Notes: a model not told the origin generated them from the letters alone. 64,000 nt of DNA from Planctomycetota bacterium (GCA_021810145.1 JAJZJL010000002.1:4643-68642), one strand, 5' to 3'; positions 549 to 60,113 are shown, counted from the first letter of the stretch. A program made the numbers and translations.

Positions 549-3173
549 TCACACCGATTCAAGCTGCTTTTCCATTTCCGCCATTTCCCGGGTTTCATGC
601 TTGGAGCGGTATACGGCCCAGGCGATCACCGCGATTGCCAATACGCCGATGGTTGCGGCAATCCAGGGAAATGGGCTTAATGGGTGGACGACGACGGAAT
701 TGTGCATGTTGCTTTCGGCTCTCCAAAGTGAAGCATCGAAGGGCAGCATCAGCGGCAATGCCAGCAGCGCCACCATGTTCATGACTTTTAACAGAGGATT
801 AATCGCAGGTCCGGCGGTATCCTTCAGCGGATCACCGACGGTGTCGCCGGTAACGGAGGCTTTGTGGCGTTCAGAACCTTTGCCGGTATTGGCTTTCAAA
901 TTCCGGGCTTCATCTTCAATGGTTTTCTTGGCGTTGTCCCAGGCACCGCCGGAATTGGTCATGAATACCGCCAGCAATTGTCCGGAAAGAATCGCTCCCG
1001 CAAGAAAGCCGGCCAGCGCAACCACGCCCAGAAGAAATCCCACGAGAATCGGCGAGAGAATGGCCAGGAATCCCGGTCCGATTAACTCACGCTGGGCCGT
1101 GGCTGTGCAGATATTGACCACTCGGGCATAATCAGGTTTGGTTTCACCGCTCCAGATTTTTTCATCCTGAAACTGCAATCGACATTCCTTGACAATTAAA
1201 AACGCCGCACGCCCCACGGCGCGAATGGTCATCGAACTGAAAAGGAACGGCACAGCGCCGCCCAGCAGCAATCCGACCAGCAATTTCGGACTGGCAACGG
1301 TCATAATACCGGAGATAACCTGATAAGCCTCACCGCTGATGCGCGCATGATCAGATACGCCTCCGGTAGCCACGAGCGTAATAAATGCCGCGTAAAGACT
1401 CACTGCCGCAATGACAGCCGAACCGATCGCCACGCCCTTGGTCAGTGCTTTGGTGGTATTGCCCGTGGCATCCAGATCCGCGAGTACCTGCCGGGCGGCA
1501 CTGTGCTGCTGCGCTCCCATTTCTTCCGCATCGTAACCCATTTCACCTATGCCGTTGGCATTATCCGCCACCGGGCCGAAGACATCCATACTCAGTGTGT
1601 TACCGGCAAGTGTCAGCATTCCGATACCGACCATGGCAACACCGTAAGCGACAAAAATTGGATTGGTCCCGTAAAATATCAGGCTGCTGGCGGTAAGACA
1701 GCAGGAAATGATAACAATGGCACTGACGCTGCTTTCCAGCCCCACCGCCAATCCGGCGATGATGTTGGTGGCATGTCCGGTGGAACAGGATTTAACCAGT
1801 GAATCCACCGGAGGCTCATGGGTTCCGGTGAAATATTCGGTCGATAAATTCAGCGTAAGAGCCAATATCACGCCAATGAACGTAGCCTCCGCCGGGCGCA
1901 TATCCAAACCCTGAATACCGAAATTAGCCCACCATGGCGCGGAACCCAGTACATGCTTCAAACTCGGATTGGCGGCAATTGCGGCGGCCCCAAAACGCAG
2001 ATAGAGAAATCCCACCAGCAGGAAGCCGACCGTGCTGATGACGGCACCAAGACGATAGCCGCGATTAATGGCGGCCATGGCATCTTTATCCGATCCCTTG
2101 TCCGCGGCCCGCACGCTGAACGTGGCAATCATATCCGAGCAAACCCCCACCGCCCGCACCAGCAACGGAAAAAGCATTCCGATGTGCCCGAAACTGGCCC
2201 AGCCCAGAATCATGGCCGCGACCATTGTCACTTCGTAACTTTCAAAAATATCGGCAGCCATACCCGCGCAATCACCGACATTATCGCCGACATTATCCGC
2301 TATTGTTGCGGCATTACGCGGATCGTCTTCCGGAATATCCTTTTCCACTTTTCCGACAAGGTCAGCACCGACATCGGCGGCTTTGGTATAAATTCCCCCG
2401 CCGACACGCATGAACAAAGCCAGGAGCGTTCCGCCAAAACCAAACCCCAGTAACGCTTCGGGAGCCCGATTACCGAAATACATAAAAATGGTCGTTGCCC
2501 CCAGAAGCCCCAGGCCGTCGTTCAGCATGCCCGTTACGGTTCCCGTGCGATAACCGAGTTGCAGCGCTTTTCCAAAACCCTGGCGGGCGGCGGCAGCCAC
2601 TACCACGTTGCCTTCCGTTGCCATCAGCATACCAATGGTTCCCACGGCCATGGAAAACAGGGATCCCATGAGAAAGGCAATACCGCGACCAATCGGTAGA
2701 CTGGCTCCCGCCGCCGTTGTCCAACTGGCGGTACCCACCAGGATAAAGGTGATCAGCACAATTAAAGGCAACAGGGTTCGGCGTTGCCGGCCAAGATATG
2801 CGATTGAGCCTTGCCGGATGGCATGGGCAACTTCCTTCATTTTTTCCGTTCCATGATCCGCCCGGCGGATAATCCGCATGAGCAGTACGGCATACGCCAA
2901 ACCGGCCAGCGCGATAAACAAAACAGCAAAGAGAGCATAACGTTCAAAAGCGGTAAACGTGGATGTGTATAGAAATCCAAAAGGATGAAATACGCCGGTG
3001 ACAGAGTTCTGCACATGGGCCGCCCCGGGCACCGAACCCTCGGGATAATGGCTGCGCGTTAACGTTATGTAGACAGCGAGAAACAGGATCAGAACGCCAG
3101 TCATGGCTGCACTTTTCGCATGGCCTGCGATAAAGGTTTTCAATTCACTCCAGGACATTGGCATAAAGAACAT
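549..3173 (-). CDS. hppA: Membrane-bound proton-translocating inorganic pyrophosphatase (H+-PPase).
   Basis: 874-aa polytopic protein with GGG(I)YTKAADVGADLVGKVE, DNVGDNVGDCAGMAADIFESY and DATGNTTKA motifs typical of V-type H+-PPases. The Lys in GNTTKA suggests a K+-independent type. It has a ~95-aa N-terminal extension with extra TM helices, so the true start may be a downstream Met. Confidence 0.92.
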   Translation of the reverse strand: MFFMPMSWSELKTFIAGHAKSAAMTGVLILFLAVYITLTRSHYPEGSVPGAAHVQNSVTGVFHPFGFLYTSTFTAFERYALFAVLFIALAGLAYAVLLMRIIRRADHGTEKMKEVAHAIRQGSIAYLGRQRRTLLPLIVLITFILVGTASWTTAAGASLPIGRGIAFLMGSLFSMAVGTIGMLMATEGNVVVAAAARQGFGKALQLGYRTGTVTGMLNDGLGLLGATTIFMYFGNRAPEALLGFGFGGTLLALFMRVGGGIYTKAADVGADLVGKVEKDIPEDDPRNAATIADNVGDNVGDCAGMAADIFESYEVTMVAAMILGWASFGHIGMLFPLLVRAVGVCSDMIATFSVRAADKGSDKDAMAAINRGYRLGAVISTVGFLLVGFLYLRFGAAAIAANPSLKHVLGSAPWWANFGIQGLDMRPAEATFIGVILALTLNLSTEYFTGTHEPPVDSLVKSCSTGHATNIIAGLAVGLESSVSAIVIISCCLTASSLIFYGTNPIFVAYGVAMVGIGMLTLAGNTLSMDVFGPVADNANGIGEMGYDAEEMGAQQHSAARQVLADLDATGNTTKALTKGVAIGSAVIAAVSLYAAFITLVATGGVSDHARISGEAYQVISGIMTVASPKLLVGLLLGGAVPFLFSSMTIRAVGRAAFLIVKECRLQFQDEKIWSGETKPDYARVVNICTATAQRELIGPGFLAILSPILVGFLLGVVALAGFLAGAILSGQLLAVFMTNSGGAWDNAKKTIEDEARNLKANTGKGSERHKASVTGDTVGDPLKDTAGPAINPLLKVMNMVALLALPLMLPFDASLWRAESNMHNSVVVHPLSPFPWIAATIGVLAIAVIAWAVYRSKHETREMAEMEKQLESV

Positions 3174-37316: not shown

Positions 37317-37459
37317 TTCACACAAGCGTCAGGACAATCAACCGCTTAAGATGACCGGCACCGGCCCGCATAACACCCGTCGCACGCCATCCGGATTGCA
37401 ACCGGGATGGAAACCCGCGGCCGTTTTAACTTTGGCTTGACATCCATCATTTCCACGAT

Positions 37460-47348: not shown

Positions 47349-47805
47349 TACAAACACCTTTGTGTTTTCCCGGTCCGTTCCTTTGGACCAGACCGGATTA
47401 TTGTGGCATTCTACAGGATAATGGCCCAACCGGCAGCAGGGCGACGCGTGCAACGGAGGAATGGTAATGTTTCCGCAAGTTCGCAGTCCCGATGCCTAAC
47501 GGGAGGAGGCATCCTATGGCCGTTCGTCGCGGACGCGAAGCCAATGTGACCGACGATTCCGTTCTTGATATCGGCCAATGCGTAAGGCGTCAGCCCCCCG
47601 CCGTTTGCCCGCCGCGTTAGTTGCCCCGTCCCCATTGCGACAATAATGTAAATGCCCAACCCGGCGATTGCGTGGCGCATCACACCGCGCTTCCCCAAAA
47701 AATCGCGCAAGCCTCGATAGCACCAAAGCGCAATTCCCGCAACTGGATGGCCGGAACAAGCACTTGTCCAATGACTGAAGACCGGGCCGGTGGAAATGTG
47801 CGGGT

Positions 47806-49739: not shown

Positions 49740-49970
49740 GCCAAAACTCCTAACCAAATCAACGCTCAAAGCTCCAATATTCGCCCGGCCTCACGACAAG
49801 CTGCGCCCATGACCCAAGCAAATCGAGCCACGTAGTATATTCGCTTGCCCCCTCGCCGTCCACTGCTTGATCTCCCCGGCTCATTTTCCAGCCACATAAC
49901 ACATTTTTCACCAATTCCAACCGCCAACTGGCGCCCGCCCGCGCCTGTCAACAGCGCTCCGTTGAGGCGC

Positions 49971-50098
49971 TACCCGCATTCCCGATCGTCATCGGGGCCG
50001 GAAACCCGTGGCCGTTTTCGGGAATCGCGCCATCAAAAACCTTCACGTCACGCCCGCGGCCAAGGGCCATGGGATTCCCTCCCGATAGCCATCGGGGC
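49971..50098 (+). repeat. Copy A of a ~127-bp structured direct repeat (paired with 51205-51329, ~80% identity).
   Basis: tacccgcattcccgatcgtcatcgggg..ggaaacccgtggccgttttcgggaat..ccatc..aac.ttcacgtcacgcccgc.gccaa.gg.catgggattcc.tcccgatagccatcggg. Contains internal hairpins (cccgat-N4-atcggg twice). Confidence 0.7.
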
Positions 50099-50428
50099 TG
50101 CATGGTGGCGCGATTGGACGAATAACAACAATCCACCATGGCAGGCGTCGCACGCTACCGCGCGACGGCCGCGCCCGGCATCCGCAACTGCGGGTGCAAA
50201 TCCCCGTCCGTTCTCGCGAATACAGCCTCGACGACGTTCACGACACCTCCGCGTCCTGGCAAGGAGAACCTTTTAACTTGGGTTAAACAGCGGACAACTT
50301 AACTTTGGCATGCCACTACCCGTTGACTTTGCGGACTCTTCGAGATATACAGCGATCATCTGATCTGCGAAATTGCTCGCCATGCGGCGTGGCTGGCCTT
50401 TGGATCGTCATGGGCATTGAGTCACTTT

Positions 50429-50848
50429 ATGAACAGCAACAGCAAAGTCGTTAAGGATTTCATCGATACAGTCCTCAATCGTGGGGACATCGATTCCTCA
50501 GGTCAGTTCTTTTGCGATGATATGGTCGAGCAGGTTCCACTACCCGGTCAGGGTCCCGGCCTGGAGGGGCTGAAGGATGTATTGCGCGGAATGCGCGCTG
50601 CGTTTCCGGACATGCACTGGACTATCGAGGAACAAATCTGTGAGGGCGATAAGGTGGTGACCCGCTTTGAGTGGACCGGCACCCACCGGGCGGAGTTTCT
50701 TGGCGTGCCCGCCACAGGTCGCCCCGTGAAGGCGTGGGGCATGGTCATTGACCGACTGGAGGATGGAAAAATCAAGGACACCCGGATTCTGATGGATGCG
50801 CTCGGATTGATGATGCAGCTTGGTGCCTTGCCGCGCCCGCAGTCCTGA
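50429..50848 (+). CDS. SnoaL-like / predicted ester cyclase (NTF2-like fold), 140 aa.
   Basis: KDFIDTVLNRGDIDSSGQFFCDDMVE...MRAAFPDMHWTIEEQICEGDKVVTRFEWTGTH...GRPVKAWGMVIDRLEDGKIKD fits the SnoaL/COG5485 pattern. ATG at 50429 (track start 50417 is TTG). Confidence 0.72.
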   Translation: MNSNSKVVKDFIDTVLNRGDIDSSGQFFCDDMVEQVPLPGQGPGLEGLKDVLRGMRAAFPDMHWTIEEQICEGDKVVTRFEWTGTHRAEFLGVPATGRPVKAWGMVIDRLEDGKIKDTRILMDALGLMMQLGALPRPQS

Positions 50849-51204
50849 GTGTGACGCCGCCCGACCGCTTGAGCCAACGGCGATTGCCCCTTGAGTTGAT
50901 GGACAATTCGCGTTATCAGGCGGCGACCTGATCTGCGGAACTGCTCGCCGGTCGGCGTGGCTCAGTTCCGCATCATTTGGCAGCATGCATATAACGGCGT
51001 CCATCCGCCAAGACATTCTCATTGAAGCCAGTCCGGCGCGAGCATTGGCCGTGGATTGGCAGGTTGCTCGTCTGCCGGAACCGATGGGCCGAATTTCCTA
51101 AAAGCCACACAGCTGCGTTTGAGTGCAAAAGCCGTCTCATGTCCGCTACTGAATCCAGAGCTATCCCCATCCCGTAACCATCAACAATCCGCCGTGGCAC
51201 GCAT

Positions 51205-51329
51205 TACCCGCATTCCCAATCTCAATCCGGGGGGGAAACCGTGGCCGTTTTCGCGAATGGGGCCATCGATAACATTCACGTCACGCCCGCTGCCAACGGT
51301 CATGGGATTCCTTCCCGATAGCCATCGGG
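51205..51329 (+). repeat. Copy B of the ~127-bp direct repeat.
   Basis: Column-by-column alignment with 49971-50098, offset ~1233 bp, same orientation. Both copies are intergenic. Confidence 0.7.
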
Positions 51330-51371
51330 AAGGAATGACGGCGTAAAGCTTCGATGAATTGTTTTCCGGCT

Positions 51372-53315
51372 TTACCCCGGCTGGCTGACGGGGCGATGGC
51401 GGCCTGATACGTAGACGGTCAGAACCATCAGATCGGCGGGGGTTATTCCTTCCAGGCGGGAAGCCTGCCCCATGGTGCGCGGACGAAATTTTTCCAGAGC
51501 TTGCCGGGCTTCAGCGCGCAGTTCCGCAATTGCCCGAAAATTCATATTCGGTGAAATGATCTTATCCTCCAATTCCGCCATGCGTTCGGCGGCATGTTTC
51601 TCACGGAGAATATATCCGGCGTATCGCGCTTCAATTTGAATCTGTTGCATCAGTATCTGCCGCGCCGGATCGGCCAGCAGTGCGGTCAATTGCGGTCCAT
51701 CAGGGCCGAGCATGGCCGGCAGAGCCGTCAGTTCCAGATCCGGGCGTCGCAGCAAATCCATGGCCGTACCACCCCCCGGCACACGCAAGGCTCTCATCTG
51801 TTGCGTCAACTGGCGCATGGCGGCGAGTTTATTTTCCAGGCGTTGAACGCGCGCCGGTTCCGCCAGGCCGAGTTCGGCGGCCAGCGGCGTAAGACGCTGG
51901 TCGGTGTTGTCGCTGCGCAACGTGAGCCGATATTCCGCGCGGCTGGTAAACATGCGATAGGGTTCGGTGGGGGTTTTGGTAATCAGGTCATCTATCATCA
52001 CGCCGATATAAGCCTGATCCCGCCGCAGCACAAACGGCCCCTGGGCGCGAATTTTCAGCGCGGCATTGATGCCTGCCATCAATCCCTGTCCCGCCGCTTC
52101 TTCATACCCGCTGGTGCCGTTGAGCTGTCCGGCAAAGAACAATCCATCGGCGCGATGGGTTTCCAGCGTGGCCCCGATTTGATGCGTGGGGGAAAAGTCA
52201 TATTCCACGGCATAACCGTGCCGCAGAATTACCGCTTTTTCCAGCCCCGCAACGCTGTGGACCATCCGCTCCTGCACATCCACGGGCAGAGACGTGGATA
52301 TGCCATTGCAGTAAATTTCATTGGTGTCCAGGCCTTCGGGTTCCAGAAAAATCTGGTGCTGGGTTTTGTCCGCAAAGCGCACCACTTTATCCTCAATGCT
52401 CGGGCAGTAGCGCGGGCCGCGACTGATAATCTGCCCGCTGTACATCGGTGCCCGGTGCAGATTGGCCCGGATCAGATCGTGAATGGCGGCATTGGTGTAG
52501 GTGATATGACACGGCACTTGCGCAAGGCCGGGAAACCGCGAGCCTAACGGCGCAGCGACGGTACCGGATAAATCACTGAACGGTATTGGCGGAACATCTC
52601 CATGCTGCGGTTCCAGCGATGAAAAATCCACCGTTTCCCGGGCCACGCGCGGCGGCGTGCCGGTTTTCAGCCGTTGCAATTCAAAGCCGAGCTTAATAAG
52701 CGCGCCGGATAATCCGACGGCGGCCTGTTCTCCCACCCGGCCACCTTCGGTTTTCTTTTCCCCGGTGTGCATGAGTCCGCGCAAAAATGTGCCGGTGGTA
52801 AGAATGGCGCAGCGGCAAGTCAATTTTCGACCGGATTTCAGTTCAATGCCGGTCACCCGCCATGCCGGCGCTTCATGATGGCCTGATGGGTCAACAAGTA
52901 TATCATCCGCAATGTCCGCGATGATTTGCAGATTGGGGCAGTGTTCCGTCAGCAGCCGCTGCACCGCCTGCGCGTAGCGGTATTTATCCGCTTGCGCACG
53001 CGGAGATTGCACCGCCGGACCTTTGGAACGATTCAGCAGACGAAACTGAATACCCGTGGCATCAATGGCATGAGCCATCAAGCCGCCAAGAGCGTCAATT
53101 TCGCGTACGATCTGGCCCTTGGCCAATCCGCCAATGGCGGGATTACAGCTCATGCGGCCAATGGCGGCGGGGTCCATGGTAATCATCGCCACGGTGCCAC
53201 GATCACCCAGCAGGCGCGATGCGGCCCACGCGGCTTCCGCACCGGCGTGGCCGCCGCCGACGACAACAATATCAAAATATGCAGCTTGATCGGTCATGCT
53301 TTGAAAATATTCCAT
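51372..53315 (-). CDS. mnmG: tRNA uridine-5-carboxymethylaminomethyl modification enzyme MnmG (GidA).
   Basis: FDIVVVGGGHAGAEAA FAD motif, conserved MnmG core and C-terminal helical domain. Start taken at MEYFQSM (53315). The track ORF extends to 53375. Confidence 0.92.
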   Translation of the reverse strand: MEYFQSMTDQAAYFDIVVVGGGHAGAEAAWAASRLLGDRGTVAMITMDPAAIGRMSCNPAIGGLAKGQIVREIDALGGLMAHAIDATGIQFRLLNRSKGPAVQSPRAQADKYRYAQAVQRLLTEHCPNLQIIADIADDILVDPSGHHEAPAWRVTGIELKSGRKLTCRCAILTTGTFLRGLMHTGEKKTEGGRVGEQAAVGLSGALIKLGFELQRLKTGTPPRVARETVDFSSLEPQHGDVPPIPFSDLSGTVAAPLGSRFPGLAQVPCHITYTNAAIHDLIRANLHRAPMYSGQIISRGPRYCPSIEDKVVRFADKTQHQIFLEPEGLDTNEIYCNGISTSLPVDVQERMVHSVAGLEKAVILRHGYAVEYDFSPTHQIGATLETHRADGLFFAGQLNGTSGYEEAAGQGLMAGINAALKIRAQGPFVLRRDQAYIGVMIDDLITKTPTEPYRMFTSRAEYRLTLRSDNTDQRLTPLAAELGLAEPARVQRLENKLAAMRQLTQQMRALRVPGGGTAMDLLRRPDLELTALPAMLGPDGPQLTALLADPARQILMQQIQIEARYAGYILREKHAAERMAELEDKIISPNMNFRAIAELRAEARQALEKFRPRTMGQASRLEGITPADLMVLTVYVSGRHRPVSQPG

Positions 53316-59733: not shown

Positions 59734-60113
59734 ACATATGCTCAAATACCGGGTAATTGCATTCGTCCGGCGCGGGAAATAGTCCAATTGCGAATTCACT
59801 TTCCTCAGACGGGCGACCGATGTAAATCCCCGGACGGTCCGGTTATTTAAGCAGCCCTGCCTGGCATAACTGCAAATGAAATGTGGCAGATCGACCGCTG
59901 CTCTTTCCATGGGTCGCGGTCCAGCGGAATGGCCGGCTGGCAGCATAACCCCGCAAGCCCGCCACGCCCCGTCGCGTCAGGCGGGACGCTTTAACTTGGG
60001 TTAAGTGACGGACAATTTCGCTTTCGCCTGACACAGCTTTTGCACAACTTGTAATTTTACGGGGGTTTTATATACTAGCGGGTCTGGAATGAACCTGAAT
60101 TGGAGTTTGGATT

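Follow-up and report, generated by a model that had tools for sequence, protein, structure and literature searches.

The ERIC (IRU) elements of the Enterobacteria are 127-bp imperfect palindromes that lie in intergenic regions, occur among other forms as internally deleted copies, and vary between related species. The Vibrio cholerae repeats bear a superficial resemblance to ~125-nt imperfect palindromes that bracket a gene, such as those described here. REP and REPIN sequences are short palindromes whose stem bears a GTAG or CGTC tag on one of its ends, and are mobilised by RAYT transposases (PMC3733652). MITEs, and gene segments that are bounded by two MITEs, provide a further point of comparison, of which Acinetobacter offers an example (PMC6382973).

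We analysed a 64-kb window (the whole 64,000-nt stretch) from a lineage which, to judge from its MnmG homologues, is an uncultured member of the Phycisphaerae, and in which a SnoaL-family gene is bracketed by two copies, A and B, of a palindromic unit. We consider it probable that this unit belongs to a new family of non-coding, palindromic, dispersed repeats of REP/ERIC/MITE-like character, and that A and B form part of an intergenic island, mosaic in make-up, in which a horizontally acquired gene is lodged. The remaining genes of the window are housekeeping in nature (H+-pyrophosphatase, hydrogenase and its maturation proteins, PFOR, AspRS and pyruvate kinase). The features on which the analysis rests are listed below in order of position, with the strand in brackets.

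37360-37449 (+): partial repeat copy D, of which only the left half is present, upstream of the promoter region of rpsA; nhmmer E 7e-5, core with 3 mismatches
47483-47598 (-): repeat copy C, inverted with respect to A and B, internally deleted and without the left hairpin; nhmmer E 2e-10 with the A/B profile
49834-49862 (-): rpmI promoter-like site TGGACG-17-TATACT, conserved in relatives and forming one border of the island
49865-51361 (no strand): island of 1,497 nt, apparently lineage-specific, from the mnmG stop codon to the -35 box of the rpmI promoter; homology to the related contigs L029, L030 and L026 stops at its borders
49945-50115 (+): repeat copy A, full length, with palindromic core at 49976-50101 and left extension of ~30 nt; from blastn, nhmmer and folding
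50124-50274 (+): repeat copy E, degenerate, in tandem 8 nt after A; nhmmer E 6e-7 with the A/B profile
50249-50316 (+): module F copy 1, with core TTTAACTTGGGTTAA, just upstream of the SnoaL promoter-like sequence
50312-50394 (+): duplicated segment copy 1, with TTGACT-17-TATACA and the presumed SnoaL 5' leader
50429-50848 (+): SnoaL-family (ester cyclase-like) gene, 139 aa, intact; Pfam SnoaL PF07366, E 8.5e-36, residues 7-131 of 139
50880-50962 (+): duplicated segment copy 2, downstream of the SnoaL gene
50985-51101 (+): 38-codon ORF after duplicated segment copy 2, with no detectable relatives
51179-51346 (+): repeat copy B, left hairpin decayed; from blastn, nhmmer and folding
59967-60034 (+): module F copy 2, upstream of the rpmB promoter-like sequence and without cargo

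Copies A and B are both real, share one orientation and lie on either side of the SnoaL-family gene. They are 85.7% identical over 126 nt (49971-50096 against 51205-51329; blastn, E 6e-37), and an nhmmer profile and alignment show that the similarity reaches ~170 nt (49945-50115 against 51179-51346). An earlier note on this DNA had described two same-orientation copies of ~127 bp, which we confirm, and had put their identity at ~80%, which is slightly low. It had also reported internal hairpins in them (CCCGAT-N4-ATCGGG, twice); both hairpins are perfect in A (49981-49996 and 50081-50096), while in B only the right one is perfect (51314-51329) and the left has 2 mismatches. The right end of B forms a perfect 13-bp stem (51307-51336) that starts ~35 nt past the mnmG stop codon and sits between the convergent mnmG and SnoaL genes. 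For the core motif GGAAACCCGTGGCCGTTTTCG we count three matches against 0.02 expected by chance: one at 50000, one with 2 mismatches at 51233 and one with 3 mismatches at 37409; the last of these is the similar core that had been pointed out upstream of rpsA, and it falls within partial copy D. A poly-G run in the left arm of B (51226-51236) has 7, 8 or 9 G among the strains and assemblies of the species, and these length differences could be real variation or assembly noise.

The full unit comprises a left extension of ~30 nt, common to A, B, D and E, and a core of ~126 nt in which arms of ~40 nt flank a centre of ~45 nt. The arms are inverted repeats (49976-50016 against 50062-50101 in A), each with one CCCGAT-N4-ATCGGG hairpin, so that terminal inverted repeats are present; the arms are ~80% complementary, and the left arm of B is degenerate. 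Because copy A folds into a single long imperfect hairpin and each copy matches its own reverse strand (nhmmer E 2e-5 for A, and 8e-6), the core can be described as an imperfect palindrome. Its right arm (ACGGCCATGGGATTCC-TCCCGATAGCCATCGGGACTGC) is the best-conserved part of the unit, and copies decay through point changes and internal deletions. Gene callers report a 40-aa ORF on the minus strand of both A and B. We rejected it as a gene, since a search of 5.8 billion proteins found only three clusters for it, all from this locus, the codon changes between A and B are mostly non-synonymous (7 against 3 synonymous), and the poly-G run inside it varies from G7 to G9 between strains and thereby shifts the frame.

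The nhmmer profile identifies five copies at three loci within the window: A, B and E in the island, C on the other strand 2.4 kb away, between pheS (downstream of it) and an AlbA_2/HATPase_c_4 gene, and D at a distance of 12.5 kb. For the degenerate copy E, blastn matches positions 72-117 of B to 50208-50252 at 76%, and its left extension matches as repeat family D6. With a four-copy profile C reaches an E-value of 1e-23, a value that is not independent, C being among the profile's source sequences. C and D are both solitary copies that carry no cargo, and no clean target-site duplication was seen at individual copies, empty sites having been compared only for the island as a whole.

Set beside the described systems, the unit is like ERIC in being nearly the same size, in forming an imperfect palindrome overall, in lying between genes and in its internal deletions; it is unlike ERIC in that the two have no sequence similarity and belong to different phyla. 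As in REP and REPIN elements, short hairpins are paired within a larger hairpin unit, which is intergenic and sometimes tandem (A and E), but the base of the stems bears neither a GTAG nor a CGTC tag (CGTC is found only in the loop of the left hairpin of A and CTAC lies 6 nt off the stem, neither being conserved in B or C), the non-palindromic centre spans ~45 nt, and an extension of ~30 nt is present on one side. A Pfam survey of window ORFs of at least 110 aa found no RAYT gene, and no transposase or integrase gene. With MITEs the unit has in common its small size, inverted-repeat arms and non-coding nature, and also the arrangement in which two copies bracket a passenger gene that is absent from relatives; it differs from them in that no clear target-site duplication was seen, that no matching autonomous insertion sequence lies in the window, and that its arms are only ~80% complementary. 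Nor, unlike gene segments bounded by two MITEs, does the island show any sign of having moved more than once.

Genome and metagenome collections were scanned with a right-arm pattern to which A, B and C all conform. This yielded one true relative of the repeat, a full unit on a 2.7-kb contig (L014) from another Phycisphaerae MAG (nhmmer E 9e-10), where it lies at 1473-1594 (-) between doc/fic-type and vapBC-type toxin-antitoxin pairs; it is the only full copy found outside the species. The earlier description of the 127-bp unit as a small repetitive element is thus supported by five copies in the window and a single one in another MAG. The repeat profile found 0 copies across seven related loci totalling 94 kb, compared with five in the 64-kb window, and among the relatives sampled in this way the repeat appears to be limited to this Phycisphaerae species. 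The window's own locus was missing from the results of both scans, even though A, B and C fit the pattern, and negatives from these poorly covering collections are therefore weak for this species. Viral, phage and plasmid collections contained nothing like the repeat.

The remaining matches, on 13 unrelated contigs, share with the unit only an 18-nt hairpin, TCCCGATAGCCATCGGGA, and its GGATnCC lead-in. This hairpin, which in the window occupies 50072-50098 and 51304-51330, is found by itself mostly in Bacteroidota intergenic DNA (loci L011, L013, L015-L022, L024 and L025). The two free positions of the hairpin pattern are almost always filled by the same bases among the 13 contigs. An outer stem, GGATTCC...GGAATGAC, often encloses the hairpin, an arrangement also seen in copy B. 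At L021 it follows directly on an ORF whose C-terminus gives the impression of being GIY-YIG-like. No Rfam family corresponds to TCCCGATAGCCATCGGGA, and a literature search for the hairpin sequence found no paper.

For comparison with empty sites we used three related contigs, representing two lineages. In L029 and L030, whose MnmG proteins are 90-91% identical to that of the window, the spacer from mnmG to rpmI measures 153 nt; L030 (GCA_021827345.1) continues into rplT and pheS, and the L029 contig ends just inside rpmI. L026 (MnmG 87% identical) has the order mnmG-rpmI-rplT-pheS with a spacer of 242 nt. No SnoaL gene or trace of the repeat is present in any of these three spacers, and in more distant relatives (MnmG 83-86%) different genes follow mnmG. 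Homology between the window and its relatives stops at 51362, which is 10 nt beyond the stop codon of mnmG, and picks up again at 49864, where the -35 hexamer of the conserved rpmI promoter-like site lies, such that the island takes the place of ~35 nt of L030. Because relatives keep mnmG and rpmI together with spacers of 153-242 nt that lack both repeat and SnoaL gene, 49865-51361 is probably an insertion in the window lineage. All contigs of the species that extend into the interval carry it, these contigs having been found through an exact SnoaL or MnmG protein.

On these alignments, a gain in the window lineage is the simplest reading. One loss would be as parsimonious as one gain if the window lineage were sister to all three island-less relatives; loss by recombination between A and B should, however, leave one copy behind, and as the relatives' spacers hold no remnant, a gain is favoured. 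The earlier note had proposed a cassette insertion mediated by a small repetitive element. Of this proposal, the insertion is upheld by the empty sites and the existence of a repeat family by its further copies, but mediation of the one by the other is not, there being no clear target-site duplication, no transposase in the window and no second copy of the cassette. The note had further held that its proposal would be refuted by a repeat confined to these two copies, with no conservation of secondary structure, together with an identical but repeat-free gene order in relatives; relatives do have that order without repeats, but the copies number more than two, so that only half of this applies.

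Within the island the order is A, E, F, duplicated segment, SnoaL gene, duplicated segment copy 2, 38-codon ORF and B. The two copies of module F are 71% identical over 68 nt (local alignment score 62, against a shuffle maximum of 51), and the module core TTTAACTTGGGTTAA is a TTAAC/GTTAA palindrome. Upstream of rpmB, homology to L026 covers only 60038-60107, where the promoter region is 90% conserved and module F is missing; since the promoter region is conserved there without the module, F represents another repeat with no counterpart in L026. The duplicated segments (50312/50319-50394 against 50880/50887-50962) are 71-72% identical over 76-83 nt (E 3e-7). The second duplication around the SnoaL gene, previously put at ~45 bp, is accordingly real and longer than had been stated. 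The 22-nt core of this duplication has no other occurrence, either in the window or at related loci, and local duplication is the likely origin of this promoter-like pair. In copy 1, TTGACT-17-TATACA appears from its sequence to be the SnoaL gene's own promoter; the promoter scan did not list it. The 38-codon ORF is probably no gene: it has no match in Pfam and no significant one in PDB, and a search of 1.84 billion representative proteins gave 0 hits. The idea that it is the start of a truncated SRPBCC gene was dropped in view of the same three results.

The closest homologues of the SnoaL protein, strain variants aside, are 75-85% identical to it and come from other phyla, for example from Nitrobacter and Limisphaerales, and a homologue on a Paraburkholderia megaplasmid has 74.5% DNA identity. 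At three loci (L033-L035) homology stops at the ends of the SnoaL ORF and the neighbouring genes differ. Distant groups thus carry close homologues with unrelated flanks, which gives the gene a horizontal-transfer pattern. No second copy of the SnoaL cassette was found anywhere.

We suggest that A, E and B, all in the same orientation, together with module F and the locally duplicated promoter-like segment, constitute a mosaic 1.5-kb island, and that this island probably entered the short mnmG-rpmI spacer in the window lineage, carrying with it the horizontally acquired SnoaL gene. By analogy with REPINs and MITEs (PMC3733652, PMC6382973), the repeats could have spread as selfish or neutral DNA, through an enzyme encoded elsewhere in the genome or through recombination, and assembly of the island probably took more than one step. 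Placed as it is where mnmG and the SnoaL gene converge, the strong end hairpin of B may form a two-way barrier at transcript 3' ends in the manner of REP and ERIC elements; the hairpins are not followed by a U-tract.

The main rival to this account takes A and B to be the directly repeated ends of a MITE-bounded unit, a composite mobile cassette that carried the SnoaL gene, along with its promoter, as a single piece into the mnmG-rpmI spacer. The same-orientation copies that bracket the island and the clean empty site in relatives would be expected of such a unit, as would the finding that A is closest to B and B to A, with flanking sequence in common, although a single duplication or en-bloc event would also explain the latter. 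A weak direct repeat does lie outside both ends, at 49865-49893 (GCTTGAT...TTTTCCAGCC) and 51348-51370 (GCTTCGAT...TTTTCCGGC), but it is imperfect, with an indel, and need not be a target-site duplication because it resembles a tandem motif already present in the L030 empty site. Further, ~80 nt of non-repeat sequence separates the left border from A, the two copies differ by 14% with the left arm of B decayed, copies C and D have no cargo, the flanks of SnoaL homologues are unrelated, and neither a second cassette nor, in the window, a transposase gene came to light. We consider transport as one composite cassette unlikely, and it would be quite a surprise if A and B proved to be the ends of an undescribed, palindrome-bounded Planctomycetota mobile unit that places promoter-equipped single-gene cassettes precisely in the stop codon-to-promoter spacers of housekeeping operons, with TCCCGATAGCCATCGGGA as the recognition site of a widespread recombinase or transposase. 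A cassette of the integron type, in which the units would be attC-like sites of an integrase-less array (CALIN), is suggested by their form, since both these units and the Vibrio cholerae repeats are imperfect palindromes of ~125 nt that flank a small gene in one orientation. We nevertheless rejected this reading, which we regard as extremely improbable, because A and B contain no RYYYAAC/GTTRRRY core pair (regular-expression search of both strands, 49860-51375; such sites occur only inside module F, at 50282-50303, and in the wrong arrangement) and the window contains no integrase gene. Nor is the gene a compact promoterless cassette: it comes with a promoter-like region of its own and with long non-coding spacers, its ORF filling 420 of the ~1,230 nt between the repeats, and the remaining copies C (inverted) and D (partial) are without any cassette.

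A different alternative is that both the A/B pair and the promoter-like pair arose inside the interval by local segmental duplication and that no dispersed element is involved. Two different direct-repeat pairs within 1.5 kb, one of them unique to the locus, agree with this, but the island order is not that of a tandem duplication, and a purely local process leaves C, D and the L014 copy unexplained; the existence of these three copies largely refutes it for A and B, and as a complete account it is very unlikely. The unit might instead be a structured RNA, whether a small RNA gene or a cis element (terminator, stabiliser or regulator), that was duplicated for function and not for mobility. In its favour, hairpin potential is kept in the diverged copies A, B, D and L014 despite their sequence differences, with the register partly shifted in D and L014, and this fits, without proving, a DNA or RNA hairpin that matters; most copies also lie between same-strand genes and point the same way as those genes, and the perfect 13-bp stem of B closely follows the mnmG stop codon. 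The tests applied to it are less encouraging: Rfam gives 0 hits at the gathering score over the whole window and, at E<=10, only chance-level matches (E 3-10) over 49800-51450, none of the 19 predicted consensus pairs (0/19) shows a compensatory change and the covariation term is unfavourable (six sequences, four of them independent, a set too small to warrant a covariance model), and folding z-scores are modest, from -0.4 to -2.6. To this may be added that the hairpins lack a following U-tract, that A lies upstream of both neighbouring promoters, and that close relatives with the same genes do without the element. The structured-RNA reading of the earlier note thus fared poorly, and we consider it very unlikely that RNA function explains the unit.

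Under the preferred reading, a dispersed repeat family within a mosaic island, the locus would represent a fairly ordinary case of repeat-rich intergenic DNA gained in one lineage. It would also offer a clear example, with filled and empty sites side by side, of how short spacers beside ribosomal-protein operons in uncultured Phycisphaerae gather palindromic repeats and a horizontally transferred gene, and would add a new repeat family to a phylum in which few such elements have been described. The locus would gain in significance if whole-genome data revealed that the repeats set cargo genes in motion, or if the 18-nt hairpin, shared as widely as it is, were a common recognition site.

Two minor observations concern the left border and the assembly of the region. 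Several metagenome contigs of the species break exactly at an island border or within A: L040 ends at 51362, L008-L010 start at 49961, and L038 ends inside A. These breaks fit graph branching, either from co-occurring island-less relatives or from the repeats themselves, and for work on MAGs the locus offers a reason why assemblies of the species tend to break there. Beside the left border, the rpmI 5' leader (49740-49833, minus strand, from the promoter-like site to the GTG start) has no match in Rfam; it is ~90% identical to that of relatives, more conserved than the adjoining spacer, and may be an autoregulatory leader of the L35/L20 operon.
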